From IMG/VR virus record IMGVR_UViG_2703719347_000005, positions 1-26,614 of that record: a stretch of DNA of 26,614 bases. One strand, written 5' to 3'. The notes below the pieces were generated by a model, which worked only from the letters and a program-made list of their open reading frames with translations, had not been told where the DNA came from and made no database searches. How positions within the stretch are numbered: position 1 is the stretch's first letter; the number at the start of each line of letters is the position of its first letter. This stretch comes from a virus (taxonomy: Duplodnaviria; Heunggongvirae; Uroviricota; Caudoviricetes). A program made the translations under genes and the position numbers. Positions 1-14,202 of this stretch are shown piece after piece.

Positions 1-405
1 ATGGATCAGGTCGTTGTTTTTCAAAAGATGTTTGAGCAAGTGAGAAAAGAGCAAAACTTCTCCTGGTTTTATTCAGAATTAAAACATCACCGTATTGCAC
101 ATTACATTTATTATCTGGCTACGGATAACATCAGAATTATTACTCACGATGATACGGTTTTGTTATTAAGAGGAACCAGGAACCTGTTAAAAGTTAGTAC
201 GACCAAGAACCCTGCTAAAATAAAAGAGGCCGCATTGCTTCATATTTGCGGAAAATCTACATTTCGGGAATACTGTTCAACACTGGCAGGCGCGGGCGTT
301 TTCCGGTGGGTTACTGATGTTAATCATAACAAACGCAGTTACTACGCCATTGATAATACGCTTTTATATATTGAAGATGTAGAAAATAATAAACCATTAA
401 TCTAG
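1..405 (+). CDS. ycgX: Hypothetical 134-aa protein, YcgX-like (DUF1398-type) chromosomal flank gene
   Basis: Complete 405-nt ORF starting at window position 1 in AT-rich DNA. Its length, and its ~700-bp spacing from a 107-aa ORF and an icd 3' fragment, match the ycgX-iraM-icdC arrangement I recall for E. coli K-12. Identification is from memory, not a search. Confidence 0.45.
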   Translation: MDQVVVFQKMFEQVRKEQNFSWFYSELKHHRIAHYIYYLATDNIRIITHDDTVLLLRGTRNLLKVSTTKNPAKIKEAALLHICGKSTFREYCSTLAGAGVFRWVTDVNHNKRSYYAIDNTLLYIEDVENNKPLI

Positions 406-611
406 CTAAAGTTGGATACTTAAGAAATGCTTCATAATTCAGTAAGGCATTAGCATAATGGAAATAAAAGTGCAGAGACTATCTCTATGGATGATTAATA
501 CTGTCTTTTTATTGTCACCCATAAATAATCACCAGACTAATACTATCAACTTGATATTTGAAATGTGATCACTTGACTTTTGATACGTTATTTTATAACG
601 GTTAACATATT

Positions 612-662
612 TATAAAAACAACGGCCGTGCCACACGTCCGTTTCAATACTTAACGCACATG
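612..662 (-). repeat. Copy 1 of a ~50-bp hairpin-containing element; near-duplicate of the icd terminator region at 1478-1527
   Basis: Direct repeat of 1478-1527 at roughly 45 of 52 positions. Contains imperfect hairpin AACGGCCGTG/CACGTCCGTT followed on the minus strand by a T-rich run (revcomp of ttataaaaac). Confidence 0.5.
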
Positions 663-1019
663 TATTTTGGTTTAGTCATCATCCGGTTATATGTATTTTA
701 GCCAGGAACAGGTTAAATCATTCCTATATAACTCAAAAATTGAAACCTTATTCTCATGTCATGCTTATATTCATTATTATCGTTATATAAAAAGGCAACC
801 ATAATGTTTAGCAAATTGGCACAAAGTAGCATAAAGGCTATGTTTTAATTACAGGATGTTCAGTCATTTGAATGTATAACATTATAGCTAAACAAATCTA
901 AAACGAAGTCAATAATTTATTGCTTTCACAAAATCTCATTTTGTTTAACATCCATTGAGATTCCTTGCTTTAAATTTTATTTTATATAAGCCATCATTTT
1001 AATTAATTTATTTTTTTGA

Positions 1020-1029
1020 GGGGGGGGGG
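1020..1029. repeat. G10 homopolymeric tract upstream of the iraM-like ORF
   Basis: Ten consecutive G, preceded by T7 and followed immediately by TAATAT (1030-1035); ~80 bp upstream of the ATG at 1107. Confidence 0.9.
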
Positions 1030-1106
1030 TAATATACTCATATGCAAAATCAAGAAATAAACATCCTAATGAACCATATTAAATACCGTGGGATAAGACA
1101 TAACAA

Positions 1107-1430
1107 ATGAAGTGGATAGTAATTGACACGGTAATTCAACCTACATGTGGTATATCTTTTTCAGCCATATGGGGTAATATGAAAATGATCATCTGGTATC
1201 AATCTACTATATTTCTCCCTCCTGGCAGTATATTTACACCGGTTAAGTCTGGTATTATCCTTAAGGATAAAGAATATCCTATTACTATTTATCACATCGC
1301 ACCATTCAACAAGGATTTATGGAGTTTACTCAAAAGCAGTCAAGAGTGTCCTCCAGGAGAAAGCAAAATAACAAATAAATGTTTACATAATAGTTGCATT
1401 ATAAAAATATGCCCATATGGGCTCAAGTAA
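1107..1430 (+). CDS. iraM: Anti-adaptor protein IraM-like (107 aa)
   Basis: 107-aa ORF in AT-rich DNA ~100 bp from the icd fragment. Size and position match iraM (ycgW) next to icdC in E. coli K-12, and the N-terminus ([12 protein letters not shown]...) agrees with my recollection of IraM. Unverified by search. Confidence 0.55.
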
Positions 1431-1475
1431 TGGGCTTCATATAAATATGCTCGATATGCTATTAATAATATCCAC

Positions 1476-1527
1476 ATAAATAAAACAACGGGCGTGTTAT
1501 ACGCCCGTTTCAATATTTAACACATGG
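1476..1527 (-). terminator. Intrinsic terminator downstream of the icd 3' end (copy 2 of the repeated element)
   Basis: Perfect hairpin AACGGGCGT-gttat-ACGCCCGTT (1487-1509) followed on the minus strand by a GTTTTATTT run; lies just 3' of the icd stop codon (1533-1535). Confidence 0.6.
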
Positions 1528-1532
1528 AGAGA

Positions 1533-1692
1533 TTACATGTTTTCGATGATCGCTTCACCAAACTCTGAACATTTCAGCAGCTTAGCGCCTTCCATCAGAC
1601 GTTCGAAGTCATAAGTTACGGTCTTGGCATTGATTGCGCCTTCCATACCTTTAACAATCAGGTCAGCCGCTTCAGTCCAACCCATATGGCGC
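1533..1692 (-). pseudogene. icd: 3'-terminal fragment of the isocitrate dehydrogenase gene (icdC-like), prophage attachment-site duplication
   Basis: Minus-strand translation reads ...[53 protein letters not shown], matching the Icd C-terminus. Homology to icd stops abruptly near 1692, with an in-frame stop just upstream. Confidence 0.85.
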
Positions 1693-1995
1693 AGCAATAT
1701 CTACGCCATAAATTCTTAAGAGACTGATTTTATTATTTATTTAACCAATGCATCGAATTTTTATTGCCTTAAACTACATTGTTTAACTTGTTGATTTAGA
1801 TAATTTTAAGCTTCGTTTTGGGGAATAAATTATCGCCTTTGACCCAAAACCTATCGGCCATTACAACGTGGCGCCAGGGACTAAAGCTTTGCTCCTGAGC
1901 TAACGCGACGAGCAGTTGTACCTCGACCCGGTTCACTGGGTTACGCGCCAGGGTGGTGGGACAAACCGCCATTGATTAATGCGAAGTACTGATAA

Positions 1996-2666: not shown

Positions 2667-3932
2667 CTACTTAACCTGTAACAGGTCGGAGTATCTTGTA
2701 GTATAGCAAGGTGAAAGCATTTCCCGCTTCATCTGCCAGGCCGTTTGGATCCCCTGCCCTGCAAAATACAGCGTTCCCCTTCCGTCTTTCGCATTGAGAT
2801 GGTCGAGTACTTCCATCAGTTTCTCGCTATTCCGCCGTGGCACGTTATCATCAAACAAGTTTAGCTGGGCCACCCCCTGACTGTAGAAATCCCCCAGCAT
2901 CACTCCGGCTTTCTGGTAGCGATACCCGTCTCGCCAGATTGCATCGAGACATTCCGTCGCCGCTGTGATTATGTCCCGACTGTCCTGGGTCGGGGTCAAT
3001 AGTTTCACTGATGCACTATTGCCGTAGTACGGCTCATTCAGAGCAAATGGGCTGGTTTTGACGAATGCAGAGATAAAGCGGCAGTACTGATGCTCACCAC
3101 GGAGTTTCTCCGCGGCACGGGATGCGTATAAGCATATCGCCTGGCGCATCTCTTCGTAGGTGGAAATCCGCTGCCCAAAGCTGCGACTACAGACAATCTC
3201 CTGCTTTACCGGCGCGAACTCCTCAAGACCGAGACATGGCTCTCCGCGTAGCTCCCGCACGGTTCGCTCCAGTACCACATTAAAATGCTTCCGGATAAAA
3301 CGGATATCGGTATCCGCCAGTTGCAGTACAGTTTTAATCCCCATGGCCTCCAGTTTTTTACTGATGCGGCGCCCGACGCCCCAGACCTCATCCACCGGAA
3401 GCAAAGCCATCAACTTCCTCTGTCTTTCCAGGTTCGACAGATCCACCACGCCTCCGGTCTGCCGCTGCCACTGTTTCGCGGCGTGATTGGCCAGCTTCGC
3501 CAGGGTTTTAGTCTGGGCTATGCCGACGCCGACCGTTAGGTGTGTCCTGCGCAGAACCGTCTCGCGAATTTCCCTGCCAAAGTCGGTAAGGTCGCGACAA
3601 TTCCGAACTCCTGTCAGGTCGCAAAATGCCTCATCAATACTGTAAATTTCGCAGCGTGGAGAGAGTTCCTCCAGCGTTGTCATCACTCGGTTGGACATAT
3701 CGGCATAAAGCTCATAGTTGCTGCTAAACGCGATAATACCGTGCCGGCGAAACACGTCCTTTTGCTTGAAATAAGGCTCACCCATTTTGACGAAGGGCTT
3801 CGCTTCTGGCGAGCGGGCGATCACACAGCCGTCGTTGTTTGACAGAACGACCACCGGACGCCCTTTCAGGTCAGGACGAAATACGGTCTCGCACGATGCA
3901 TAAAATGAATTCACATCACAAAGCGCAAACAT
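2667..3932 (-). CDS. umuC: Translesion DNA polymerase V catalytic subunit UmuC (Y-family polymerase)
   Basis: Starts MFALCDVNSFYASCE with the SIDEAFCDLTG catalytic motif, ~421 aa. ATG is at 3930-3932, one nt after the umuD stop. The ORF-track 5' extension to 3992 is rejected. Confidence 0.9.
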   Translation of the reverse strand: MFALCDVNSFYASCETVFRPDLKGRPVVVLSNNDGCVIARSPEAKPFVKMGEPYFKQKDVFRRHGIIAFSSNYELYADMSNRVMTTLEELSPRCEIYSIDEAFCDLTGVRNCRDLTDFGREIRETVLRRTHLTVGVGIAQTKTLAKLANHAAKQWQRQTGGVVDLSNLERQRKLMALLPVDEVWGVGRRISKKLEAMGIKTVLQLADTDIRFIRKHFNVVLERTVRELRGEPCLGLEEFAPVKQEIVCSRSFGQRISTYEEMRQAICLYASRAAEKLRGEHQYCRFISAFVKTSPFALNEPYYGNSASVKLLTPTQDSRDIITAATECLDAIWRDGYRYQKAGVMLGDFYSQGVAQLNLFDDNVPRRNSEKLMEVLDHLNAKDGRGTLYFAGQGIQTAWQMKREMLSPCYTTRYSDLLQVK

Positions 3933-3933
3933 C

Positions 3934-4353
3934 TTAGCCAGCTGATTTAATGATGTACGTAACCACCCCGAACACGTCGAGAGTGTCCTCACTACCGACG
4001 ACTATTGGCGAATATGCAGGGTTCATTGGGTTAAGCTGAACCCGCGGATGCAGTTGCAGCTTCTTAACGGTGAATTCCCCATCCACAGCAGCAATAACGA
4101 TATCGCCATGAACTGCTGTTCTTGAGCTATCCACGACCAGAAGATCACCTTCCCCTATGCCTGCGTCTTTCATGCTGTCGCCGGCGGCTTTGACAAAATA
4201 CGTCGCACTTGGGTGGTTAACGAGCAACTCGTTCAGATCAATACGTTGCTCAACATAATCCTGCGCTGGACTAGGAAAGCCGCACTGCACAAGGTCACTG
4301 TACAACGGGAGCAGCATGATCTGGCGTAACTCAACGGGCGTGTAGAACTGCAT
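3934..4353 (-). CDS. umuD: UmuD, LexA-like self-cleaving accessory subunit of polymerase V
   Basis: 139 aa from ATG 4351-4353 ([13 protein letters not shown]...). Conserved Cys-Gly cleavage site (LVQCGFPSP), Ser (GDSMKD) and Lys (TVKKLQL) present. Confidence 0.9.
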
Positions 4354-4372
4354 AATAAACTCGCTCACAAAA

Positions 4373-4693: not shown

Positions 4694-4816
4694 ATTGGGA
4701 TGGTATAGACCAAAATTCATGGTCCTTGCTCCTCGACGTCGGAAGGTACTTACAGATCATCTTCGCTCTTAACCTATCACATCGGCACCTACTCCATGAT
4801 GTAACAGCTCAGACCA

Positions 4817-4934
4817 GAAATATCTGGAAGCTTTAGGCATCTTCTTGGAAGATAGACGAGCGCAAAGACGCACACAGCAATGATGTTATGTAGTATTTTC
4901 CCCTTGAGTGTGCCTGCTCAAGGGGATTTTTTAT
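4817..4934 (+). repeat. Direct repeat copy 1 (~118 bp), homologous to 7965-8079, ending in an intrinsic terminator
   Basis: Shared GAAATATCTGGAA, a 22-bp identical core GCGCAAAGACGCACACAGCAAT (4860-4881 and 8008-8029), and a terminator hairpin with conserved loop. Confidence 0.6.
4900..4934 (+). terminator. Rho-independent terminator (plus strand) overlapping the 3' end of the invertase gene
   Basis: CCCCTTGAG-tgtgcctg-CTCAAGGGG followed by ATTTTTTAT. The minus-strand version has no U-tract, so it is not the invertase terminator. Confidence 0.6.
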
Positions 4935-5487
4935 CGCCGCATTGTACCGGCAAATTTTTGTAAATAGTCTTCACATCTACGCCTATCACATCTGCGATCT
5001 GTTGCCGAGTAGCGCCGTTCTCCAGCATTCTGCGGCACCGCTCCACCACTTCTTCAGTCATTACCCGGCGGCGGCCGCCGACTCTCCCCTGCTCCCTCGC
5101 TGCGGCTAACCCGGCTCGGGTACGCTCCACTATCAGCTCGCGCTCCATTTCTGCCAGGGCGCTCATGACGTGGAAGAAGAATCGCCCTGCTGGCGTCGAA
5201 GTGTCGATCGAGTCGGTAAGGCTGCGGAAATTCACCCCACGCGCCTGCAACTCTGACACGAGCGTAATCAGATCGCGCACGCTGCGGCCCAGCCGATCCA
5301 GTTTCCAGACCACCAGCACATCACCCGGGCGGAGCCGTCGCAGCGCTCGCTTCAAACCTGGCCGCCGGGCATTCTTCCCGCTGGCCATATCCTCGAAAAC
5401 CAGCTCACATTCTGCGCGGATCAGCGCGTTTTTCTGTAAATCGAGGTTTTGATCCCCGGTTGATACCCTCGCATAGCCAATCAGCAC
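4918..5487 (-). CDS. Serine DNA invertase, Gin/Hin/Pin/Cin family
   Basis: MLIGYARVSTGDQNLDLQ...VVWKLDRLGRS...FRSLTDSIDTSTPAGRFFFHVMSALAEMERELIVERT closely matches Gin/Pin over the catalytic domain. GTG start at 5485-5487 with SD AAGGAG 7 nt upstream. C-terminal ~45 aa diverge from what I recall of Gin/Pin. Confidence 0.9.
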   Translation of the reverse strand: MLIGYARVSTGDQNLDLQKNALIRAECELVFEDMASGKNARRPGLKRALRRLRPGDVLVVWKLDRLGRSVRDLITLVSELQARGVNFRSLTDSIDTSTPAGRFFFHVMSALAEMERELIVERTRAGLAAAREQGRVGGRRRVMTEEVVERCRRMLENGATRQQIADVIGVDVKTIYKNLPVQCGDKKSP

Positions 5488-5510: not shown

Positions 5511-5539
5511 ATTGTAAAAAGCCGCGGCCATTCGCTCAA
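5511..5539 (-). promoter_or_regulatory. Putative sigma70 promoter of the invertase gene, -35 overlapping crossover site L
   Basis: On the minus strand: -35 TTGAGC (5539-5534), 17-bp spacer, -10 TACAAT (5516-5511). The -35 hexamer lies inside the left half of the 26-bp site. Confidence 0.3.
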
Positions 5540-5556
5540 ACCCTCGTTTGGGCGAA
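5531..5556. other. gix/hix-like 26-bp recombination site L
   Basis: TTCGCTCAAACC-CT-CGTTTGGGCGAA: two 12-bp half-sites (TTC....AAACC) around a 2-bp core, as in gix/hix/cix. Exact reverse complement occurs at 11080-11105. Confidence 0.65.
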
Positions 5557-5923
5557 GCCTCTTTTTGGAGCAAAAAACATGGCCGAACTTAACCCGCCAC
5601 TGGGCACGACGACGCCGGAAATATTCATGGACAACGTTAAGCGCGCTGACGAGCTGGTTAACGGTCCGGCCGGAACGGTTGACGACCGCGGCGGTGAACC
5701 ACTCGATACCTGGCGCCAGATGATGGCGAAAAACGATGAGGTCAGGCAGAACCTGATCCCGCTCAGTAAGCAATACCAGACGCTGGCAGCGGCGCAGGCG
5801 GATATCGCGAATATTCCGGTGGGGTCGACCACGTATTACCGTAGCCCGGATGACAACGCGTTAGCTGTAGAAGTGATCAATAACGCCGGTACGCTGCAGC
5901 CTACCGGGCGGAAAATGCCATCT
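5531..5923. repeat. Left arm of ~390-bp inverted repeat (site + RBS + first ~115 codons of fibre A)
   Basis: First 48 bp are 100% identical to revcomp of 11058-11105; the next ~345 nt are roughly 85-90% identical by eye to the fibre B 5' end. Confidence 0.85.
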
Positions 5924-7918
5924 TATTCTTCGCTACGCGGGGCGAACATTCTGTTTGATGCTCTGAATGAATATTCAGCAAATGATCCTAAATTCGGTGC
6001 GTGGGACTGGTATCGCGGAGCAGTGATCACCTTCAGCACTACTGATGCCAATATTTCGTTACCGACTCCAGTGGCACAGTATTCCGGCGTATGGTCTGCA
6101 GATAAATATTATGACCTTGCCCGCCTGCCTGTAAGGGTTGGTGATAAGTTAACCTTTTCCGTGCTGGCGTGGTTCCAGGATGCCGGTGCTATGTTCCATA
6201 TTTTCTGGATGTCCACCGCTGGCGCTGTTATTTCGTCTAAATCACAGCTTGCTCTGGCCGCAGGTATAAATACGCCGGTTATCACAGATGTCATTCCATC
6301 CGGCGCATCCTACGTCAGGATCCGGGTTGAAAATACTACGGCAGGGATATTTAAGGTCGGTGCTTATGCTGCTGCGTTGGGGGCTATTCAGCCTGATTTT
6401 GTTCGCGCCACGCCGGATAAAACTTATCTGTCAGCCGTCATATCATCCGGTATTTCGGGGTTAACATCACGCGTCGATGCGCTCCAGGGAGCTATCTCTG
6501 TTGGTTATGCTTATGCAGCTGCCTGGCAAGTCGGGAAATTTATCAACCCAACTACAGGGGCCATCACTGATAACTCTGCGCTGAACTGCGCAATCATTCC
6601 GCATTCCGACGGGGATGGCTGGCTGGTGACAGCCCTTGTGACAGGATCGGCGACTGCTCTGGCCGTGTACATGAACAGCGCCGGGATGGTATTGGGTGTT
6701 GAAGGGCGGGGAACGGCAACCCCGCAGCAGTATACTAATTATCGTCTTAACGTTCCTGCCGGGACAACACAGATCGGTATAACGGGTCGTAATTCTGCGG
6801 AAATTGCTGTTAAAAAACTTGCTGTCGTTGAGACGGCCAAAGTACTGGCATCGATCGATTCTCTGGATGTCAGGGTACAAACAATAGAGGACTCTCTTGT
6901 TTATGATTTTATTAAACACGACGTCACGATTACCTCAGGAGCATATATAAACCGTGCTGATGGCAGTGTGGTGGCAAATGCTGCATTTGACTGTGCAATT
7001 TTTAATTACACAGCAGGAGACCGCTGGAAAGTCACAGCGAGGGTTAACGGCAGTGGAGTTTCGCTCGCGGTGTATATGAACAGTGCCGGGACGGTTATCG
7101 GCACCGAAGGGAACGGTACTACAGAATCGGTGGACTACACCGATTACGAGCTAACACCTCCTTCCGGCACCGCCAAAATCGGGATCACCACCCGTATAGC
7201 CGTCCCCATTATTGCCAAAAAATATGTAGTCGTTCCCGGTGGTAGCACGGTCAGTCCGTGGTCTGGAAAAGTCATCGATGTGATGGGTGACAGCAACGTT
7301 GCTTATAACAAATGGCAACCTCTTGTCGCGGCAGAACTGGGCTGCACTTTTCTGAATCACGGGGTCGGTGGTTCGAAAATAGCCAAACCGGATAGCTCCT
7401 CAACGCAAATCAGCATGTGCGACGATGTGCGAATCAATGCTCTGGATACATCGGCGGCGGCGTGGATTTGCGGTCCGTGGGCAACAAACGACTGGGCGCA
7501 AAATATTCCGATTGGAAGTATCACCGACTCAGTGAATACAACCGTTTACGGCGCGCTGAACATCATCGCTCAGAAACTGCGGGCGCGGGCCCCAACAAAA
7601 CCTATCCTGTGGGCCACGCCGTTCAATGGGGACTATGATTCTCCACGTTCAGCGGCATGGGTTGACGGTGAAACAAATGGCTATGGGCGGGTTTCTGACT
7701 ATGCAGCGGCCATACGCGCCGTGGCGTTGCGATATGGATTCCCCCTAATAGACCTTAACGCTGACTGTGGCTGGACAAAATTCAATAGCACTAGTTTTTT
7801 ATTAACCGAGGGGGATACAAATCCGTCCCGCATCCACCTCAATGCGGACGCGGGGCCTGTGCGTATTTCCTCACTGATAACCGATCGGCTTACTGCCCTA
7901 CAGAAACTGGTGGGCTAG
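5579..7918 (+). CDS. Alternative tail fibre A (779 aa): shared N-terminal anchor, three repeated ~100-aa modules, C-terminal GDSL/SGNH-like esterase domain
   Basis: N-terminus MAELNPPLGTTTPEIF... shared with fibre B for ~115 aa. C-terminal region carries MGDSNVA, HGVGGSK, WATNDW and a late His (SRIH), reading like SGNH hydrolase blocks. Currently antiparallel to the tail operon. Confidence 0.7.
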   Translation: MAELNPPLGTTTPEIFMDNVKRADELVNGPAGTVDDRGGEPLDTWRQMMAKNDEVRQNLIPLSKQYQTLAAAQADIANIPVGSTTYYRSPDDNALAVEVINNAGTLQPTGRKMPSYSSLRGANILFDALNEYSANDPKFGAWDWYRGAVITFSTTDANISLPTPVAQYSGVWSADKYYDLARLPVRVGDKLTFSVLAWFQDAGAMFHIFWMSTAGAVISSKSQLALAAGINTPVITDVIPSGASYVRIRVENTTAGIFKVGAYAAALGAIQPDFVRATPDKTYLSAVISSGISGLTSRVDALQGAISVGYAYAAAWQVGKFINPTTGAITDNSALNCAIIPHSDGDGWLVTALVTGSATALAVYMNSAGMVLGVEGRGTATPQQYTNYRLNVPAGTTQIGITGRNSAEIAVKKLAVVETAKVLASIDSLDVRVQTIEDSLVYDFIKHDVTITSGAYINRADGSVVANAAFDCAIFNYTAGDRWKVTARVNGSGVSLAVYMNSAGTVIGTEGNGTTESVDYTDYELTPPSGTAKIGITTRIAVPIIAKKYVVVPGGSTVSPWSGKVIDVMGDSNVAYNKWQPLVAAELGCTFLNHGVGGSKIAKPDSSSTQISMCDDVRINALDTSAAAWICGPWATNDWAQNIPIGSITDSVNTTVYGALNIIAQKLRARAPTKPILWATPFNGDYDSPRSAAWVDGETNGYGRVSDYAAAIRAVALRYGFPLIDLNADCGWTKFNSTSFLLTEGDTNPSRIHLNADAGPVRISSLITDRLTALQKLVG

Positions 7919-7964
7919 TTAACAGTGCTTATCGCGTAGTAGTGTTTCTAAAATGCTGTAATAA

Positions 7965-8079
7965 GAAATATCTGGAAATGTTTTGAATTATCCAGGAGTA
8001 TATCAACGCGCAAAGACGCACACAGCAATAATGTCATTCATCGCTTTTCCCCCGGCGTGCCTCCGGGGGGATTTTTTAG
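7965..8079 (+). repeat. Direct repeat copy 2 (homolog of 4817-4934) downstream of fibre A
   Basis: See copy 1. Stem sequence differs from copy 1 with compensatory changes (CCCCTTGAG/CTCAAGGGG versus CCCCCGG/CCGGGGG) while the loop (GTGCCT) is conserved. Confidence 0.6.
8049..8079 (+). terminator. Rho-independent terminator downstream of fibre A
   Basis: CCCCCGG-cgtgcct-CCGGGGGG followed by ATTTTTTAG on the plus strand. Confidence 0.6.
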
Positions 8080-8173
8080 TCCTTTATGACGTCGTCTTGT
8101 CCCGTCCTCAGGGAAGCTATAGTGGTCTTATTTCACGTGGTAACTGAAACTGAATACAGTACGAGTCAGCTTA

Positions 8174-8890
8174 TTACGCGATTGATAAAATCCCTTCATA
8201 GCTCTGAGTGACGAGGTCAACCATATCCATTTTTTCAGCCTGAGAGAGTATTCCGCCCGCCCACACCCCTGTCATTGCAATATCCACAGCGCCTAAAAAA
8301 TCTGACGTGATATAGGAGTAGCCAGCATAAATCGACTTATTCGGAACAGGGATTGCGCGGGCGGTAACAGCGACCTGTTCAGTCGATAACAGCTCACTGT
8401 TCGTCATTTTATGAAGCTGAACCATAGAGTTATTCACATCGAGGAAAACCAGATGGAATTTACTGGTGTCCAGTGGAGTCGCGAGGGTGGCGGTTGCTGT
8501 CCCGCTTGACCGCCCCACAATCCCCCTGATTTGAGGAATGGCCGGTTCAAAAACAAACGTATCCCCCTGCGGTTGTACAGCAGAGCCGAGATAGTTACCC
8601 ATGCCCAGCGCTCTGGTAGTGCTTTTAGGCCGGAGTAACACCATCATGGTTTTAACCGGGTTATCCGTGACTTTCAGATCATAACCCCCCGCACCAACAC
8701 CACCCGTAAACCAGTACGTGTTGATGACAGGTGCCCCCACTATGGTTGGCTCTTCCCCAAAAATAGCCCCAAAGTTCTGGCTGCCAAATGTGGCAATGCT
8801 CGCGATAGACGGCTGCGGATAACTCGAACCAATAATACAGTCATCATCCCAGACGGCATCAACATTAATAGATAATCCCTGATTAGACAT
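8174..8890 (-). CDS. Hypothetical protein (238 aa) co-transcribed downstream of fibre B; possible fibre accessory or assembly protein
   Basis: Start ATG 8888-8890 (MSNQGLSINVD...), 7 nt after the fibre B stop, with GAGG SD overlapping that stop. The ORF-track 5' extension to 8989 overlaps fibre B and is rejected. No family recognised. Confidence 0.5.
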   Translation of the reverse strand: MSNQGLSINVDAVWDDDCIIGSSYPQPSIASIATFGSQNFGAIFGEEPTIVGAPVINTYWFTGGVGAGGYDLKVTDNPVKTMMVLLRPKSTTRALGMGNYLGSAVQPQGDTFVFEPAIPQIRGIVGRSSGTATATLATPLDTSKFHLVFLDVNNSMVQLHKMTNSELLSTEQVAVTARAIPVPNKSIYAGYSYITSDFLGAVDIAMTGVWAGGILSQAEKMDMVDLVTQSYEGILSIA

Positions 8891-8897
8891 AAGTACC

Positions 8898-11057
8898 TCA
8901 CAACGTGATTTCAAACATGACGCAATAGTTATCCATACGGATAACCTCGCTATTAAGGGTAAAACTGATAATGTCGCCCTGGCTGTCACGCAGACAACCG
9001 CGCGGCCCGGTCAGGCGACCCGGTGACTGGCCGGTGGTGCCGCCGTGAAAGGCATACTGAAGAATGGCCCCGGCAGGGATATCCGCTGCCGTTGAGACAG
9101 TCACCGCGTCATAACGGATATTGAGGCTGGTCAGCGGGATAATCGCACGTGTGTCAGGGTGCAGTAGCCGGAAACCATAATTACCCGGATCAGAAACAAT
9201 GCTGGTATCAAAGCTCAGCCGACCCACCGGATTCAGCCACACCGTAGCGGCGCGGCCCTGGCGTTGATGACTAACTGGCATCAGTGGTTTTGCCGCTTTG
9301 CCGTCAACCAGCGCCCGCTTTTCCATCACGGAAATATAAAGCCCCTGAATATAGGAACTTCTGGCGGTGAGGTGTGCGCCATCCGTGTAATCGTGAATGT
9401 ACATCGGGTTCGTGAGATAGACATTTTCGCGTGTCTGCGCCAGCTCCAGCAGCGCCATCGGAATGGTGGGATAGGCTGTGTTCGGCGTCCGGTTTATCCA
9501 GCTGCTGAACTGATAAACAAAAATCGGCACATGGACTTCTTCGCCGCACACAGCTGAGGCGTGGGCATCGATCCGCTGTTGCATGGTGTCGAAAATAGCC
9601 TGATAGTCTGCTTTGGTGGTGCCTTTCGTCTGGTCTGCTTCGCCCTGCATCCAGTACATCGCCACAGGCCGGTAGGTTTTCCCGAGCTCCTGAGCGCGGG
9701 CGTAACCATAACTGATATCATCGAAAACTCGCTGAATGTACTTTCCGGGATACGCCGCCAGCACATCAATGGGTTGACCGCCCTCCGCCGGAACAGAACC
9801 CAGAATGATCAGATCATCCGGGTTAAAGCCATAGTTCTCGGCAATCATCAGTTCGTACCAGCCGCGAATGCTGGCCCCCATTGGGGTTTCCCATGCCTGG
9901 CCGTTATCGGTGTTTTTATACGTCTCGACGTAGGGAACCAGCTGAGCATGGTTTTCTGCCGAAGTGCCGGAGCCATCCTGCGCCCGTGCCCCACCGATAA
10001 AACGCAATGCGGTATACAGCGCGGCTATCGTAATCAGGGCCTGAGTATTCACGCCAGCGGCAAGCGATTGTCCGTAACCGATTTTATGGGCAATATCCGG
10101 CAGGCGTGAGTAAATGGACTGATTAAAATAGCGCAGAAATTCAGGGGAAATAATCGCTTTAACTTCCAGAGTTTCGGCTTTCAGCGATTTTACCTCTCCA
10201 TGATTCGCTTCAATTTTCCCCGCAGCAAATGCCCCGTTTTTTTTGATACCCACAGCCGGACGATTTAACGTATCACGCCACGCCATAACGAAATCGCGGA
10301 ATGTCGCAGTAGAAATGCTGGCGTTGGCTGGTAACCCTAAGATACTGGCAATCGTAAGATTGTTGATCTCAGCCTTCCCTGATTTCAGTACCCCTTTTTT
10401 ATTAATGGCAAAACAAAGCCGTTTAAGGGTGTCATAAACTGAAACAGCGTTACCGTCAGCCACTAATGATAAAGCAGAATTCCCGATATTCAGACGTGAT
10501 GACGAGATGATCGACGAAATAAATTCATCCGCTGAGAGCTTTTTTAATTCTGCTTTATTCGCCTTAATCCACCCGGCAAGCAACCGGCCCGCCTCATCCA
10601 GCCCTACCGAATAATTTTTTCGTTCATCCATAAAGGCAAGAGACATACCCGCTGGCGCATTCTGGCTGAACGTTGCTCTGATCAAATCAGTCATGATATT
10701 GACCAGCTCCTGAGATGGCATTTTCCGCCCGGTAGGTTGCAGCGTCCCGCCGTTATTCATGTACTCGTCCGCCAGCGCCCAGACGTCCTGGCTGCGAACA
10801 TAGGTCGTGGAGCCAACGGGGATATTCGCGATATCTGCCTGCGCTGCCGCCTCATTCATATACTGCTTGCTGAGTGGGATCAGGTTCTGCCTGACCTCAT
10901 CGTTTTTCGCCATCATCTGGCGCCAGGTATCGAGCGGTTCACCTGCGCGGTCGTTAATCGTTCCGGCCGGACCGTTCACCAGTTCGTCAGCGCGCTTGAC
11001 GTTATCCAGGAATATTTCAGGCGTCGTCGTTCCCAAAGGCGGGTTAAGTTCGGCCAT
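8898..11057 (-). CDS. Alternative tail fibre B (719 aa): shared N-terminal anchor, SASA-like acetylesterase domain, extra C-terminal domain
   Basis: N-terminal ~115 aa shared with fibre A. Residues ~325-585 carry YGQSLAAG, WMQGEAD and DGAHL, consistent with SASA/DUF303-type SGNH esterases. Colinear with the tail operon, so this is the presumably expressed fibre. Confidence 0.7.
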   Translation of the reverse strand: MAELNPPLGTTTPEIFLDNVKRADELVNGPAGTINDRAGEPLDTWRQMMAKNDEVRQNLIPLSKQYMNEAAAQADIANIPVGSTTYVRSQDVWALADEYMNNGGTLQPTGRKMPSQELVNIMTDLIRATFSQNAPAGMSLAFMDERKNYSVGLDEAGRLLAGWIKANKAELKKLSADEFISSIISSSRLNIGNSALSLVADGNAVSVYDTLKRLCFAINKKGVLKSGKAEINNLTIASILGLPANASISTATFRDFVMAWRDTLNRPAVGIKKNGAFAAGKIEANHGEVKSLKAETLEVKAIISPEFLRYFNQSIYSRLPDIAHKIGYGQSLAAGVNTQALITIAALYTALRFIGGARAQDGSGTSAENHAQLVPYVETYKNTDNGQAWETPMGASIRGWYELMIAENYGFNPDDLIILGSVPAEGGQPIDVLAAYPGKYIQRVFDDISYGYARAQELGKTYRPVAMYWMQGEADQTKGTTKADYQAIFDTMQQRIDAHASAVCGEEVHVPIFVYQFSSWINRTPNTAYPTIPMALLELAQTRENVYLTNPMYIHDYTDGAHLTARSSYIQGLYISVMEKRALVDGKAAKPLMPVSHQRQGRAATVWLNPVGRLSFDTSIVSDPGNYGFRLLHPDTRAIIPLTSLNIRYDAVTVSTAADIPAGAILQYAFHGGTTGQSPGRLTGPRGCLRDSQGDIISFTLNSEVIRMDNYCVMFEITL

Positions 11058-11105
11058 GTTTTTTGCTCCAAAAAGAGGCTTCGCCCAAACGAGGGTTTGA
11101 GCGAA
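10713..11105. repeat. Right arm of ~390-bp inverted repeat (fibre B 5' end + RBS + site R)
   Basis: Reverse complement matches 5531-5923; outermost 48 bp are identical. Confidence 0.85.
11080..11105. other. gix/hix-like 26-bp recombination site R (inverted relative to site L)
   Basis: TTCGCCCAAACG-AG-GGTTTGAGCGAA on the plus strand, the exact reverse complement of site L. Confidence 0.65.
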
Positions 11106-11133: not shown

Positions 11134-14100
11134 TTAAGCAGCGTCGCCGGGGTATGTGGCGTCGTCGTACTGGTAGAACGATTCGAGGTATTCTTTTGCG
11201 GTGACCTGGCAGGTTCCGTCAGACTGCGGGGCGATCTCCTCTACAATGGCGTCGTAGACGTGGCGCGTTGAGCCGCAGAACACCAGGCGGATCGGCTCGA
11301 TGGTTGCCGACGACAGGTCAACCCGCATGGGATCATCAAACTCGCTCAGGTGCGGGACTGACAGCTGAAAATCACCCACCCGGCTCGCCACCATCAGCCC
11401 GGATGCAGAGCCATCCTGATAGCGGATTAGCGCGCGGGGATTTTCGAAAGACCAGTCCAGCGGCTCCGTAACGGTGAACGTTGTCACGCCACCAGCCGTT
11501 GTCATCGCCTCCACCAGACAGGAAATTGTGTTGTTACCCGGAATATCATCCGTGAGCACAATGCGATCGCCCGTGTTGTAGCACAGCGCGTCCAGCTCGG
11601 TAGTGGTCTGGAACGTCACCCGCTGCTGCAGGTATTTCATCAGGCGACGCATGCCGATCTGGTAGGCGTGATCCTGATTCAGTACCCCATCGAGTTTGTA
11701 GTTCTCGATTTTCACCGGCGTGGGATTATCAGGCGTCCGGCATTTAACGGTCTCCTCCGCCCAGGTAGTCCCGTTGATGTATGTCACGTCGACGCCATCA
11801 AAATCATCGTCGGACGGTACGGTAAATCCGCTCTGCAGCTCCTCCACCATCTCATGCGGAGTGATCACGCCAGTCCAGGGCTTAATCCCCTCACGGTTGA
11901 CCGTCGCCAGGCCATCACTCAGCAGAAAACGTGACTTCCCGGCATTGGCTATCTTCTGCAGCATTTCCAGCGCTGAGATACTGTCGCCCGTGGCGAAATC
12001 AAAATTTTCGCCCCGTGGCGTCCAGTACGCGGATTCCAGCGCGTTGATGGTGTCGACGTCCATCTCCAGCCCCAGCGAGTTCCCGACATGCAGCAGCGCC
12101 CCCGAAATGGTTCTGGCGGTTCCTGAGTCGTAGGCCCGCGTGGCCACAACGTTTACGCGGCGGTCCGACTGCGCCGCCAGCTTCCCACCCGTCTCAACGG
12201 TCACCGCCATCAGCGACACGCCGGGATAGGATGAAGGGCGCGTCAGCAGTCGCCCGCGCAGTGCCTGCCAGTACATCGAATCCCTGGCGTTGTTTGAGCC
12301 CTGCTCATTGCGCCGACGGCAGCGAACCTCTACCAGTCCCGGAGAACTGAGGGTGATCCGCTCAGTGAAACCTAACCCGTTGACGTTTTTCAGCGCATAC
12401 TCGCCCTGGTGACTCACCCACCCCGATCCGGAACCGTAGACGCGATACTGTATCTCCCACTCAACGTGGCGGATCCGTTTTTTGCCCTTACTGTCAAAGC
12501 CGCAAATACCGTTCGGGAAAGAGAAATTCACCTCGAACATATCGACGGTCTCATTTTCAGGGCAAACCAGGAACGGCCCCAGCCAGCTCAGCGTGTCGTT
12601 AAGACCAGTGGCCTCATAGTCGATCATCGTCCGGGCGGTGAATCCCGGCCATGACTCATCAACGGCACCGTTAACCAGGCGCGCCACCGTCGCCGTTGTG
12701 CCGTCGGTCGAGACAATGCGGTACTCATTCCCGCGGTGAGCAAGTGAAAGCCGTTGCACCCCCTCCGGCATGCCGGAAAAGGCCGTTCCCGTGGCGCTGT
12801 TATAGGCAAGCGTCACATTCGCCGTTACCGCCGGGCTGCCGCCGGTTGATGCCGTGCCGGAGGTGTAAACCGGGGCATCACCGAAAACAGCTGCAGGCAG
12901 CGAAGAGGACGTGATCTCCCCACCCGCGAACGGACTGGCCGACTCGGTTATCAGTACGGTGCCGCCGTTGTCCTGCGCAACCAGGCCGGCGCCAGTGAGT
13001 CCCTCGGTGATGGCCGCCAGCAGTCCCGACATCGAGACGTAGTTAGCCACCAGCGACACCGGGTAGGTAACTCCCTGCCAGGTGATCGTGAACGTGCTGG
13101 AGCTGGTCGAAAAATCGTAGGTGGTCGGGGCCGCACTGGCCTGGACTTTTGCCACACTCCCCCCGGTGCCGGGCACTGCAGCCTGACCGGGGGTATATGA
13201 CGCGATAAACAGATCGTAATCGACAGAGTTAAACCCCAGCGTCACCGGCATTCCAACCACCGGCGCGATCTCCGTCAGCAGCGGGCTTGCGATAACGCTG
13301 TATCCGGCCGCCGTGGTGATCTGGTAGTTCGCCTGGGCTTTCAGTTCGACCACGGCGCCAGCGACCCAGCTGGGCGGCAGTGAGTTATCGTTCTCGTCAT
13401 TATCGTCATCATCATCCGTATCCAGCCCGGTAAACGTTACGCTCGAACCGGATACGGTCATGCTGTCTGCGATAATATCGTCGGCATCCGGCGACGTCTG
13501 GGCCATATCCAGCCCGGTACCGGATGATGTCCCTCCGACCTCAGTACTATTGACCCAGTTTTCACTGCGCTCATCGCCGGAAACGTCCGCGCCTGGTGGA
13601 AAATAGGTGATGTTGAAACCCGGCAGCGTTGAAGCTGGCGTACTGCCTACCCTGATATCGCCAGTGGTATAAATCAGTTCACCGACACCGAGACACAGCA
13701 GCATCTGGACGCGCATTTTCGTAGGATCGGCGGCATCGAACCGGGTAACGGGCTGGACCACATAATCCGGGTAGATACGCACCCGGCCAAACACCTCACG
13801 AATGGCATCACCGAGTTTTGCGGTGTTGGCCCGCGCCGGGTTCAGGTCGAGACTCCGCCCTGTGGATGAGGTATAGCCGCCCGTATCGATGCGGCTCATC
13901 AAAACAAGCGAATAGGCTGCAGCGGCAACGGAGATACCGACGCCGATCCACGCGATTGTGGCGGCCTCCAGCCCGAAGGGGACCGGATAAAGCCGTACAT
14001 CACTATCAGGGCGGATCACACAGGTAGCCCACTCGCCTGGCGGAATTGACTGACCCTCAACCTCAACGGTCAGCGGTGGGACATCCCGATCGGTATAGTT

Positions 14101-14202
14101 TTCAACATTTTCCACCAGCCAGGTGCGGATACTGGTTACACCATGCTCATGCGTTTCGAGTGGTTCACCGGGAAGCCGGGACGGGTAGAAACGAATGGTC
14201 AT
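11134..14202 (-). CDS. Tail tip / central fibre host-specificity protein (1022 aa), possibly a fused I/J-like protein
   Basis: Large protein directly downstream of the NlpC/P60 gene with a 4-nt ATGA overlap. N-terminal ~100 aa include a hydrophobic stretch (AATIAWIGVGISVAAAAYSLVLM), reminiscent of lambda gpI. Confidence 0.55.
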   Translation of the reverse strand: MTIRFYPSRLPGEPLETHEHGVTSIRTWLVENVENYTDRDVPPLTVEVEGQSIPPGEWATCVIRPDSDVRLYPVPFGLEAATIAWIGVGISVAAAAYSLVLMSRIDTGGYTSSTGRSLDLNPARANTAKLGDAIREVFGRVRIYPDYVVQPVTRFDAADPTKMRVQMLLCLGVGELIYTTGDIRVGSTPASTLPGFNITYFPPGADVSGDERSENWVNSTEVGGTSSGTGLDMAQTSPDADDIIADSMTVSGSSVTFTGLDTDDDDDNDENDNSLPPSWVAGAVVELKAQANYQITTAAGYSVIASPLLTEIAPVVGMPVTLGFNSVDYDLFIASYTPGQAAVPGTGGSVAKVQASAAPTTYDFSTSSSTFTITWQGVTYPVSLVANYVSMSGLLAAITEGLTGAGLVAQDNGGTVLITESASPFAGGEITSSSLPAAVFGDAPVYTSGTASTGGSPAVTANVTLAYNSATGTAFSGMPEGVQRLSLAHRGNEYRIVSTDGTTATVARLVNGAVDESWPGFTARTMIDYEATGLNDTLSWLGPFLVCPENETVDMFEVNFSFPNGICGFDSKGKKRIRHVEWEIQYRVYGSGSGWVSHQGEYALKNVNGLGFTERITLSSPGLVEVRCRRRNEQGSNNARDSMYWQALRGRLLTRPSSYPGVSLMAVTVETGGKLAAQSDRRVNVVATRAYDSGTARTISGALLHVGNSLGLEMDVDTINALESAYWTPRGENFDFATGDSISALEMLQKIANAGKSRFLLSDGLATVNREGIKPWTGVITPHEMVEELQSGFTVPSDDDFDGVDVTYINGTTWAEETVKCRTPDNPTPVKIENYKLDGVLNQDHAYQIGMRRLMKYLQQRVTFQTTTELDALCYNTGDRIVLTDDIPGNNTISCLVEAMTTAGGVTTFTVTEPLDWSFENPRALIRYQDGSASGLMVASRVGDFQLSVPHLSEFDDPMRVDLSSATIEPIRLVFCGSTRHVYDAIVEEIAPQSDGTCQVTAKEYLESFYQYDDATYPGDAA

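Follow-up and report, generated by a model that had tools for sequence, protein, structure and literature searches.

Inversion of a prophage segment carrying two complete, convergent tail-fibre genes points to a switch between whole receptor-binding-protein genes

We analyzed a 26,614-nt stretch of DNA from a tailed virus (Caudoviricetes; IMG/VR record IMGVR_UViG_2703719347_000005), referred to below as the window, which derives from a Klebsiella-type prophage in Escherichia coli, and we describe here its invertible segment (5531..11105, i.e., 5,575 bp). The segment lies between a gene for a DNA invertase and the tail tip gene J, and it holds two convergent genes, fibre A and fibre B, together with an accessory open reading frame (ORF) of 238 aa (Table 1). 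A 26-bp crossover site marks each end of the segment; both copies (sites L and R) are located 22 nt upstream of a fibre ATG, within the 5′ untranslated region (UTR), and no ORF is cut. Fibre B, the 238-aa ORF, and J are colinear, and in the orientation found in the window J reads into fibre B, with the J stop codon positioned 28 nt outside site R. J matched NCBIfam TipJ (E = 6e-137) and phrog_469.

Table 1. Features of the invertible segment and its surroundings, in window coordinates (RBS, ribosome-binding site; CDS, coding sequence)
Feature	Position	Strand	Remarks
Second copy of the cassette 3′-boundary element plus terminator	4816..4926	+	Outside the segment, beyond the 3′ end of the invertase gene
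DNA invertase	4918..5487	−	189 aa, GTG start; outside the segment and transcribed away from it
Putative Fis-dependent recombinational enhancer	5398..5469	−	Invertase gene nt 19–90, the same position as the annotated P1 cin enhancer
Sigma-70-like invertase promoter (predicted)	5511..5539	−	Consensus scan; −35 TTGAGC in the outer half of site L, −10 TACAAT
Crossover site L	5531..5556	+	TTCGCTCAAACCCTCGTTTGGGCGAA, i.e., TTCGCTCAAACC-CT-CGTTTGGGCGAA
5′ UTR of fibre A	5557..5578	+	Inside the segment; T-run, GGAG (5567–5570), 8-nt spacer
Fibre A	5579..7918	+	Complete gene, 779 aa
Cassette A 3′ boundary	7964..8071	+	Conserved ~75-nt element plus GC hairpin/T-run terminator (8047–8071)
Accessory ORF	8174..8890	−	238 aa; travels with fibre B; 717-nt CDS in the RefSeq annotation
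Fibre B	8898..11057	−	Complete gene, 719 aa
5′ UTR/RBS of fibre B	11058..11079	−	Inside the segment
Crossover site R	11080..11105	−	Exact reverse complement of site L
Tail tip gene J (TipJ family)	11134..14202	−	Last fixed gene of the late tail operon

The site displays a 12-2-12 architecture, which is the same as that of cix, gix, and the Sandmeier consensus (quoted in PMC4134206), and its core dinucleotide CT is non-palindromic and identical in sites L and R, as inversion requires. A search of the window for TTCGCTCAAACCCTCGTTTGGGCGAA with up to three mismatches recovered sites L and R only, with a chance expectation of 0.00 for a match (100 shuffles of the window), and a scan with the degenerate Din-type pattern TT-5N-AAACS-NN-SGTTT-5N-AA likewise returned only these two. 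Neither scan gave a third site that would make the segment a shufflon, and none of the related loci described below has more than two sites. The sites head two inverted-repeat arms of 393 nt (5531–5923 and 10713–11105) that are identical at 336 of 393 positions (85%). Specifically, identity is perfect over the 68 nt that begin at the outer edge (5531–5598), which comprise the site, the GGAG-containing 22-nt UTR, and the initial 20 nt of coding sequence, and the second-longest perfect run measures 59 nt. The flanks outside sites L and R are unrelated to each other, i.e., homology ends at the outer site edge. Each site is also part of a hairpin (5531–5566 and 11070–11105) with an 11–12-bp stem followed by GCC-TCTTTTT, which has a terminator-like score on both arms and an RNA centroid energy of −14.8 kcal/mol, and a T-run of 4–6 is kept after the site in all inner-flank variants across loci. 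This hairpin could insulate a silent cassette or attenuate read-through from J into the fibre gene.

The invertase matched Pfam Resolvase (E = 1.6e-49) and HTH_7 as well as phrog_125 (DNA invertase; E = 1.8e-85), aligned end to end with Mu Gin (PDB 4m6f, residues 1–182; E = 1.3e-71), shares 68% identity with P1 Cin, and has the catalytic Ser9 intact in the motif MLIGYARVS. Both hexamers of its predicted promoter are conserved in all invertase-side flanks, with a variable spacer, and the position of the −35 hexamer within site L suggests that the invertase may be autoregulated by occupancy of the site. A Fis-like 15-mer, GCGCAGAATGTGAGC, is found at nt 71–85 of the invertase gene, and cin has GCGCAGGATGTGAGC at the same place. 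When synonymous diversity was compared in 24-codon windows over 40 distinct invertase alleles, the eight lowest values all belonged to windows beginning at codons 7–14, and the minimum of the whole gene falls at codons 7–37. This minimum and the Fis-like motif hint at a recombinational enhancer in the 5′ part of the gene.

The initial annotation of this DNA had described a 26-bp site with an exact inverted copy at the other end of the segment, half-sites organized as in gix, hix, and cix, homology that stops at the outer edge of each site, a Gin/Pin-family invertase beside site L, two complete convergent fibre genes inside the segment, a fibre B and downstream ORF colinear with the minus-strand tail operon, and crossover sites in the 5′ UTR that provide each orientation with its own start codon and anchor; the coordinates, flank comparison, homology searches, and gene map given above bear out each of these. 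Two of its measurements required revision. The stretch of perfect identity, put at 48 bp, is indeed identical but extends to 68 nt, since the first 20 coding nt also match, and the invertase, said to start 44 bp outside site L, does start close to it, at a measured distance of 43 nt.

Fibres A and B are identical at 100 of their first 115 residues, which represent an N-terminal anchor, and they align over aa 1 to ~135 only, with unrelated distal parts. In fibre A, the anchor domain (aa 1 to ~115) is accompanied by a C-terminal SGNH/GDSL esterase domain that matched Pfam Lipase_GDSL_2 (E = 2.4e-9, aa 571–757) and the GDSL-like protein 7bxd in PDB (E = 2e-9) and displays the motifs GDS (at 570), ND (at 637), and RIH (at 751). 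Fibre B belongs to phrog_4201 (tail fiber; E = 2e-114), and a PDB sequence search returned no match for its enzymatic domain. It does host the esterase-like motifs GQS329, QGE471, and DGAH559, blocks that we take to resemble the catalytic blocks of sialate-O-acetylesterase-type SGNH enzymes, and a SASA-type esterase is probable, if not proven, for its C-terminal part. Thus, the initial proposal that each fibre has an enzymatic domain of its own holds for fibre A, with its GDSL/SGNH match, and falls short for fibre B, where it comes down to a sub-threshold SASA match and the motifs. The unrelated distal parts (GDSL-type versus SASA-like) make different specificities likely. The 238-aa ORF had no match in Pfam, PHROG, or NCBIfam; its homologues are confined to 17 Klebsiella clusters, i.e., a tiny Klebsiella-restricted family, and an AlphaFold model built from a 15-sequence alignment was unusable (predicted local distance difference test score of 34). 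Most fibres in related loci are likewise followed by an ORF of 240–460 aa.

Comparison of this locus across related assemblies had been suggested in the initial annotation as a way to find both orientations, and both were found. In ten complete RefSeq E. coli genomes, the segment 5531–11105 matched at 100% as one block, with its flanks on the opposite strand; in NZ_CP018109.1, for example, J reads into fibre A, and the convergent fibre B lies next to the invertase. We refer to this order as A-on and to that of the window as B-on. Junction-specific searches of RefSeq complete genomes found none with the window junction for this exact A/B pair. In a larger collection, an exact-protein look-up retrieved 27 long E. 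coli contigs with fibre A, of which 21 were A-on and 6 were B-on, the latter including the complete chromosome CP035350.1, and a look-up with fibre B gave 20 versus 5 by orientation. When the window was aligned with an A-on molecule (L001 in our numbering of loci), all differences were confined to the diverged repeat arms, so the two differ by inversion alone. Full comparison of four isomers (L001, L128, L130, and L132) with the window gave zero differences in the 5,575-bp segment and the flanks compared; L130 and L132 are B-on and L128 is A-on, and all three are identical to the window over this range. The breakpoints of these window-type isomers fall within the 68-bp identical stretch that holds the site. 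Both isomers were seen in several structural backgrounds, namely intact prophages, those with J::IS26 or an invertase interrupted by an insertion sequence (IS), and those with a group II intron nearby. As judged from these assembled genomes, natural isomers that differ only by inversion show that the segment inverts in nature.

Two further isomer pairs, in which the segment holds other cargo, were identified. The first consists of two IMG/VR loci (L014 and L114) in which a 5.7-kb segment, ≥95% identical, is inverted relative to J. The other comes from E. coli EC28 and ES4, which have one prophage in common; it lies at the zinT locus in both, its 9.5-kb flank is identical, and its segment is found in opposite orientations. 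Here, the arms share 54–66 nt and then drop to 55–62% identity, and no word in common beyond that point exceeds 12 nt. Because the arms share only 54–66 nt, homologous recombination is implausible for this pair, and the event must have occurred in or beside the 26-bp site. The 737-aa fibre of EC28 starts with MAEFIPELG, i.e., its partner's first six codons followed by its own sequence (L142 15657–15722 versus L144 9565–9630), and the ES4 counterpart starts with MAFNPELG and is preceded by a G21C variant of the site; the chimeric start of EC28 reflects either a short conversion tract between arms or allele replacement.

Other comparisons of this kind were set aside. Kpn_R1 and KPP5665-2 have the same layout and different cargo and are uninformative as an isomer pair, and p10A (L146) and p10B (L143) were not counted, since IS26 rearrangements confound them; these two are blood isolates of the same Houston series in which the J-side fibre differs, and the IS26 rearrangements of p10A run through its second fibre. 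Placing the crossover at the central dinucleotide from site variants was also rejected, as G21C is linked to the cassette (invertase-side in ES4, J-side in L054) and G20A to the flank or UTR (L112 and L114). Among the window-type loci, the B-on L129 has an A-to-T change inside site R (window-equivalent 11087) and two substitutions in the 5′ region of fibre B, which reflect either natural variation of the site or a mistake in the assembly. Damaged prophage copies (L133/L141, L132/L140, and L138) variously contain an IS-cut 129-aa invertase, an IS26-truncated J with an aac(3)-type resistance island, or a group II intron reverse transcriptase gene located just upstream of fibre B, and the copy with an IS-disrupted invertase is A-on.

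Exact copies of the 26-mer were found in more than 118 stretches of IMG/VR. A temperate phage that has been isolated, KPP5665-2, also contains it, with no mention in its genome note, and only 3 GTDB species representatives have it, so that the taxonomic breadth given here rests on IMG/VR and E. coli data. We assembled a set of 143 site copies from IMG/VR and reference loci. In all 143, the ATG of a fibre gene (247–1345 aa) follows at 20–29 nt, mostly 21–22, and GGAG is present just upstream of the ATG in every common inner-flank variant. On the outer flank, all classifiable loci have either the C-terminus of J (colinear, ~30 nt away) or the invertase (divergent), and the invertase starts exactly 43 nt from the site in 45 of 45 loci. 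Two sites, 5.1–7.3 kb apart, are present in 33 loci. As many as four mismatches were allowed in looking for the second site, which is therefore unbiased by the exact-match query; it proved exact in 26 of the 33 and had one mismatch in the other 7, with variable adjoining bases. In at least 12 of these 33 loci the anchors are divergent (24–60 matches in 115 aa) and the inverted repeat comprises the site and RBS only, indicating that the ~390-bp arms of the window are incidental and that the site is the invariant feature.

The fibres of these loci fall into 57 clusters at 90% identity, many of which contain both J-side and invertase-side members, and half-segments are shuffled among partners: the module of fibre B and its ORF (3,040 bp) occurs with fibre A, with a 614-aa fibre, or with a 1113-aa fibre. 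In another group of prophages (L006, L013, L017, L019, L050, L058, L082, L088, and others), a solo site lies between J and a single fibre-plus-accessory cassette, and in some of these J is only 58% identical while the site is exact. Solo sites may be remnants, acceptors for trans-acting invertases, or a sign of a second function of the sequence. Several existing annotations in this family are misleading (KPP5665-2, i.e., L004, as well as L002 and L144), with J labelled as a "kinase," a fibre as a "flagellar biosynthesis protein" or "O-glycosyl hydrolase," and a tail assembly gene as a "nitrite transporter."

A ~110-bp element is present in two direct copies in the window (the D1 repeat, with 4816–4889), one 3′ of fibre A and the other beyond the 3′ end of the invertase gene, and many related loci, as well as solo-site prophages, have the same element after their fibre cassettes. 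From its placement, it looks like a cassette 3′ boundary or a homology arm. The hairpin terminator between the cassettes was considered as a bidirectional terminator and rejected, as it has no T-run on the minus strand. Farther out, the prophage borders on ycgX, iraM, and a partial copy of icd, i.e., the e14 attachment region of E. coli (window 1–1700), and umuD/umuC-like Pol V genes are located between the invertase and the prophage end (window 2667–4368).

We consider it highly probable that the segment is a Din-family switch with its crossover in the 5′ UTR, by which entire receptor-binding-protein cassettes take turns downstream of a single, fixed late operon. Each half-segment would represent a promoter-less cassette made up of the inner half-site, the RBS, a full gene with its anchor, the accessory ORF if present, and a 3′ terminator. 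Invertase dimers bound at both sites would form a synapse that probably also includes an enhancer, occupied by Fis and located within the initial ~90 nt of the invertase gene, and cleavage at the central CT followed by subunit rotation would flip the 5,575-bp segment. Late transcription leaving J would read the J-facing cassette, i.e., fibre B and the 238-aa ORF in the window and fibre A in the other isomer, and the other cassette would face the invertase gene with no evident promoter and most likely be silent. Each virion would then be equipped with just one of the two surface-polysaccharide esterases, and the two kinds of progeny would adsorb to different hosts; such a switch of host range would amount to bet-hedging. 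A simple sigma-70 scan, which does not cover phage late or other promoters, found no sigma-70-like promoter facing either fibre gene from outside the segment, so that late transcription running on from J most likely reads the J-proximal cassette. The crossover can be placed only within 68 nt in the window or ≤66 nt in EC28/ES4, both of which include the site; the cleavage position, the dependence on Fis and on the invertase, the exclusive expression, and the effect on host range are what we infer from the analysis as a whole.

Several points weigh against this switch. The second of the two expected Fis sites was not recognizable in the putative enhancer, the SASA match of fibre B stays below the Pfam threshold (E = 0.003–0.006), and the promoter scan is crude enough to leave expression of the invertase-side cassette possible. 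The orientation counts come from assemblies, each of which reports one consensus orientation, and the 21:6 bias could stem from clonal inheritance of very few events. EC28 and ES4 also differ at the 5′ end of one arm by three clustered differences (site position 21, a GAG indel, and one substitution), so that a single precise crossover is insufficient and an extra gene-conversion or allele-replacement step is needed. Finally, many prophages keep a single, exact copy of the 26-bp site where neither an invertase nor another site lies within 5–10 kb, and the 26-mer may thus have, or also have, another role, e.g., as an RNA hairpin. The differences between EC28 and ES4 bear on the idea that RecA-dependent homologous recombination between the 393-bp repeats flips the segment, with the invertase and the 26-bp palindrome as bystanders or relics. 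The chimeric 5′ end of EC28, and the inner-flank variant that arms of the same locus often share, point to homology-driven exchange or conversion, the two arms in the window match at 85% of positions and include perfect runs of 68 and 59 nt, and the crossover between the window and L001 can be placed only within the 68-nt run. Nevertheless, EC28 and ES4 are inverted with 54–66 nt in common and a longest word of 12 nt beyond, the repeat is merely the site and RBS in at least 12 of 33 loci, the 26-mer is invariant where adjacent bases vary, an intact Gin-like invertase sits at a fixed 43 nt in 45 of 45 loci, and the site has the half-site layout of the Din family; we therefore regard recombination by RecA as very improbable. 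That the difference in orientation is an assembly artefact of the inverted repeat has a practically negligible probability: inverted repeats do break short-read assemblies, and several IMG/VR contigs end at the site, but complete chromosomes exist in both orientations (CP018109.1 and nine others A-on, CP035350.1 B-on), the arms are diverged except for 68 nt, so that reads span them, and there are two further isomer pairs, with EC28 and ES4 both being complete genomes.

A different objection accepts the inversion and holds that fibre expression is unaffected, i.e., that both fibres are made in either orientation and that virions carry both enzymes, as do Klebsiella phages with dual tailspikes. 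Many Klebsiella phages do hold several receptor-binding proteins at once (PLoS Biol 2026 and bioRxiv 2026 papers), and the evidence on promoters is a simple sigma-70 scan. The two fibres, however, have a common anchor (100 of 115 aa) and would compete for one docking position, with no branching; the cassettes have an RBS and no upstream promoter-like sequence, and the invertase-side copy lies back to back with the promoter region of the invertase. Moreover, the site between J and the RBS is kept in 143 of 143 copies, which would be pointless if orientation were irrelevant, and the precedents of Mu, P1, and e14 follow the same switch logic, making simultaneous expression quite improbable. The solo sites belong to a broader proposal, which we consider unlikely: the 26-bp site and RBS would be a universal recombinase-addressable junction of mobile cassettes, with a ~118-bp terminator element as the 3′ bound, that are traded in an integron-like manner between co-resident Klebsiella/Enterobacter siphoprophages. 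Solo sites would accept invertases in trans, as PinQ acts on e14, and the site hairpin with its U-run would act as a terminator that silences the invertase-side copy and is passed on the J side by antiterminated late transcription. The solo sites and the terminator-like hairpin leave room for such a role in cassette exchange or regulation, although it is unlikely.

Tail-fibre inversion is a textbook example of "gene splicing by recombination." The described cases alternate C-terminal fragments on a constant N-terminus, whereas here the same enzyme family would cut upstream of the gene, which would let a phage alternate receptor-binding proteins that share nothing, with accessory genes travelling along. 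The design is common in Klebsiella prophages and has also entered clinical E. coli lineages. If it works as proposed, prediction of host range or capsule specificity from a prophage sequence depends on the orientation of the segment, and a single lysogen can release two types of phage; annotation pipelines, for their part, mislabel these genes. For phage engineering, the conserved 26-bp site and RBS may also provide a natural docking point at which complete receptor-binding proteins can be exchanged.

The initial annotation did not recognize this whole-gene layout as described, and our search of the literature agrees: it gave no description of such a switch, and the only trace was an uninterpreted inversion in a Klebsiella pneumoniae ST14 prophage. 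In that prophage (#4), a ~5-kb inversion downstream of a DNA invertase involves five ORFs, including fibre genes, none of which is disrupted (bioRxiv 10.64898/2025.12.17.694638). Its authors found the mutation fixed in evolved clones and considered that it might attenuate fibre production, and they proposed no sites, mechanism, or switch (bioRxiv 10.64898/2025.12.17.694638); this inversion very probably belongs to the same family as ours. Recent surveys of receptor-binding proteins of Klebsiella temperate phages do not mention inversion, and a recently reported Enterobacter phage shufflon follows the in-ORF paradigm. For Mu, P1, and e14, annotations and papers confirm the earlier statement that the crossover lies inside the fibre ORF, and the same is true of EC958. 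This canonical feature, i.e., a crossover inside the fibre ORF with a constant N-terminus outside the segment, is absent from the present locus, and convergent receptor-binding cassettes beside an invertase are present.

The closest resemblance is to the G segment of Mu. The invertase matches Gin from end to end, and both genes start with GTG-CTG-ATT-GGC-TAT. The order is also the same (a fixed tail gene, two convergent cassettes between a pair of sites, and, after a short gap, an invertase reading away), the gap from crossover to invertase measures 67 nt for Mu gin and ~56 nt here, and both systems have 26-bp sites of 12-2-12 type and whole accessory genes within the segment (U/U′ in Mu, the 238-aa ORF here). 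However, gixL lies inside the S ORF, where a 509-nt constant N-terminal part remains outside and C-terminal halves alternate in frame, whereas both sites of the window are intergenic, and the start codon, RBS, anchor, and catalytic part all alternate with no splicing. The cargo differs as well, with tailspike-like esterases on a lambda-like siphovirus tail here and myovirus fibres with chaperones in Mu. The C segment of P1/P7 is similar in its invertase (Cin, 68% identity) and its cix site (TTCTCTTAAACC-AA-GGT...), and its enhancer covers cin nt 19–90, where the present gene has its minimum of synonymous diversity and the Fis-like motif. In that system, cixL and the 3′ end of cin overlap, and cixR is internal to S, which leaves a constant Sc of 1.36 kb. 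The Min system of p15B has six sites and shuffles 3′ fragments, compared with two sites and whole genes here.

The P segment of e14, with Pin, and the EC958 switches are likewise prophage-borne systems with Din invertases, 26-bp sites, and tail-fibre segments of 1.8–3.1 kb, and both of their orientations coexist in cultures (PMC4134206, PMC4272514, and PMC12529663). The e14 half-site GGTTTGGGAGAA resembles CGTTTGGGCGAA of our site, and the prophage of the window sits in the e14/icd attachment region. Nevertheless, e14 is described as forming chimeric ORFs and EC958 as alternating in-frame C-terminal fibre fragments, whereas here no ORF is cut. Complete genes with conserved 5′ ends alternate at one expression position by inversion in the sap system of Campylobacter fetus and the vsa system of Mycoplasma pulmonis; those systems differ in being RecA-dependent or served by a tyrosine recombinase, in belonging to other organisms, and in not being phage host-range systems. 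Toggling of whole-gene expression by a Din-family invertase is known from Salmonella Hin, where the inverting DNA holds a promoter and the hin gene itself while the genes it controls stay in place. Compared with the Hin H segment, the present system would follow a mirror-image logic, in which the promoter is fixed outside the segment and promoter-less cassettes are flipped.

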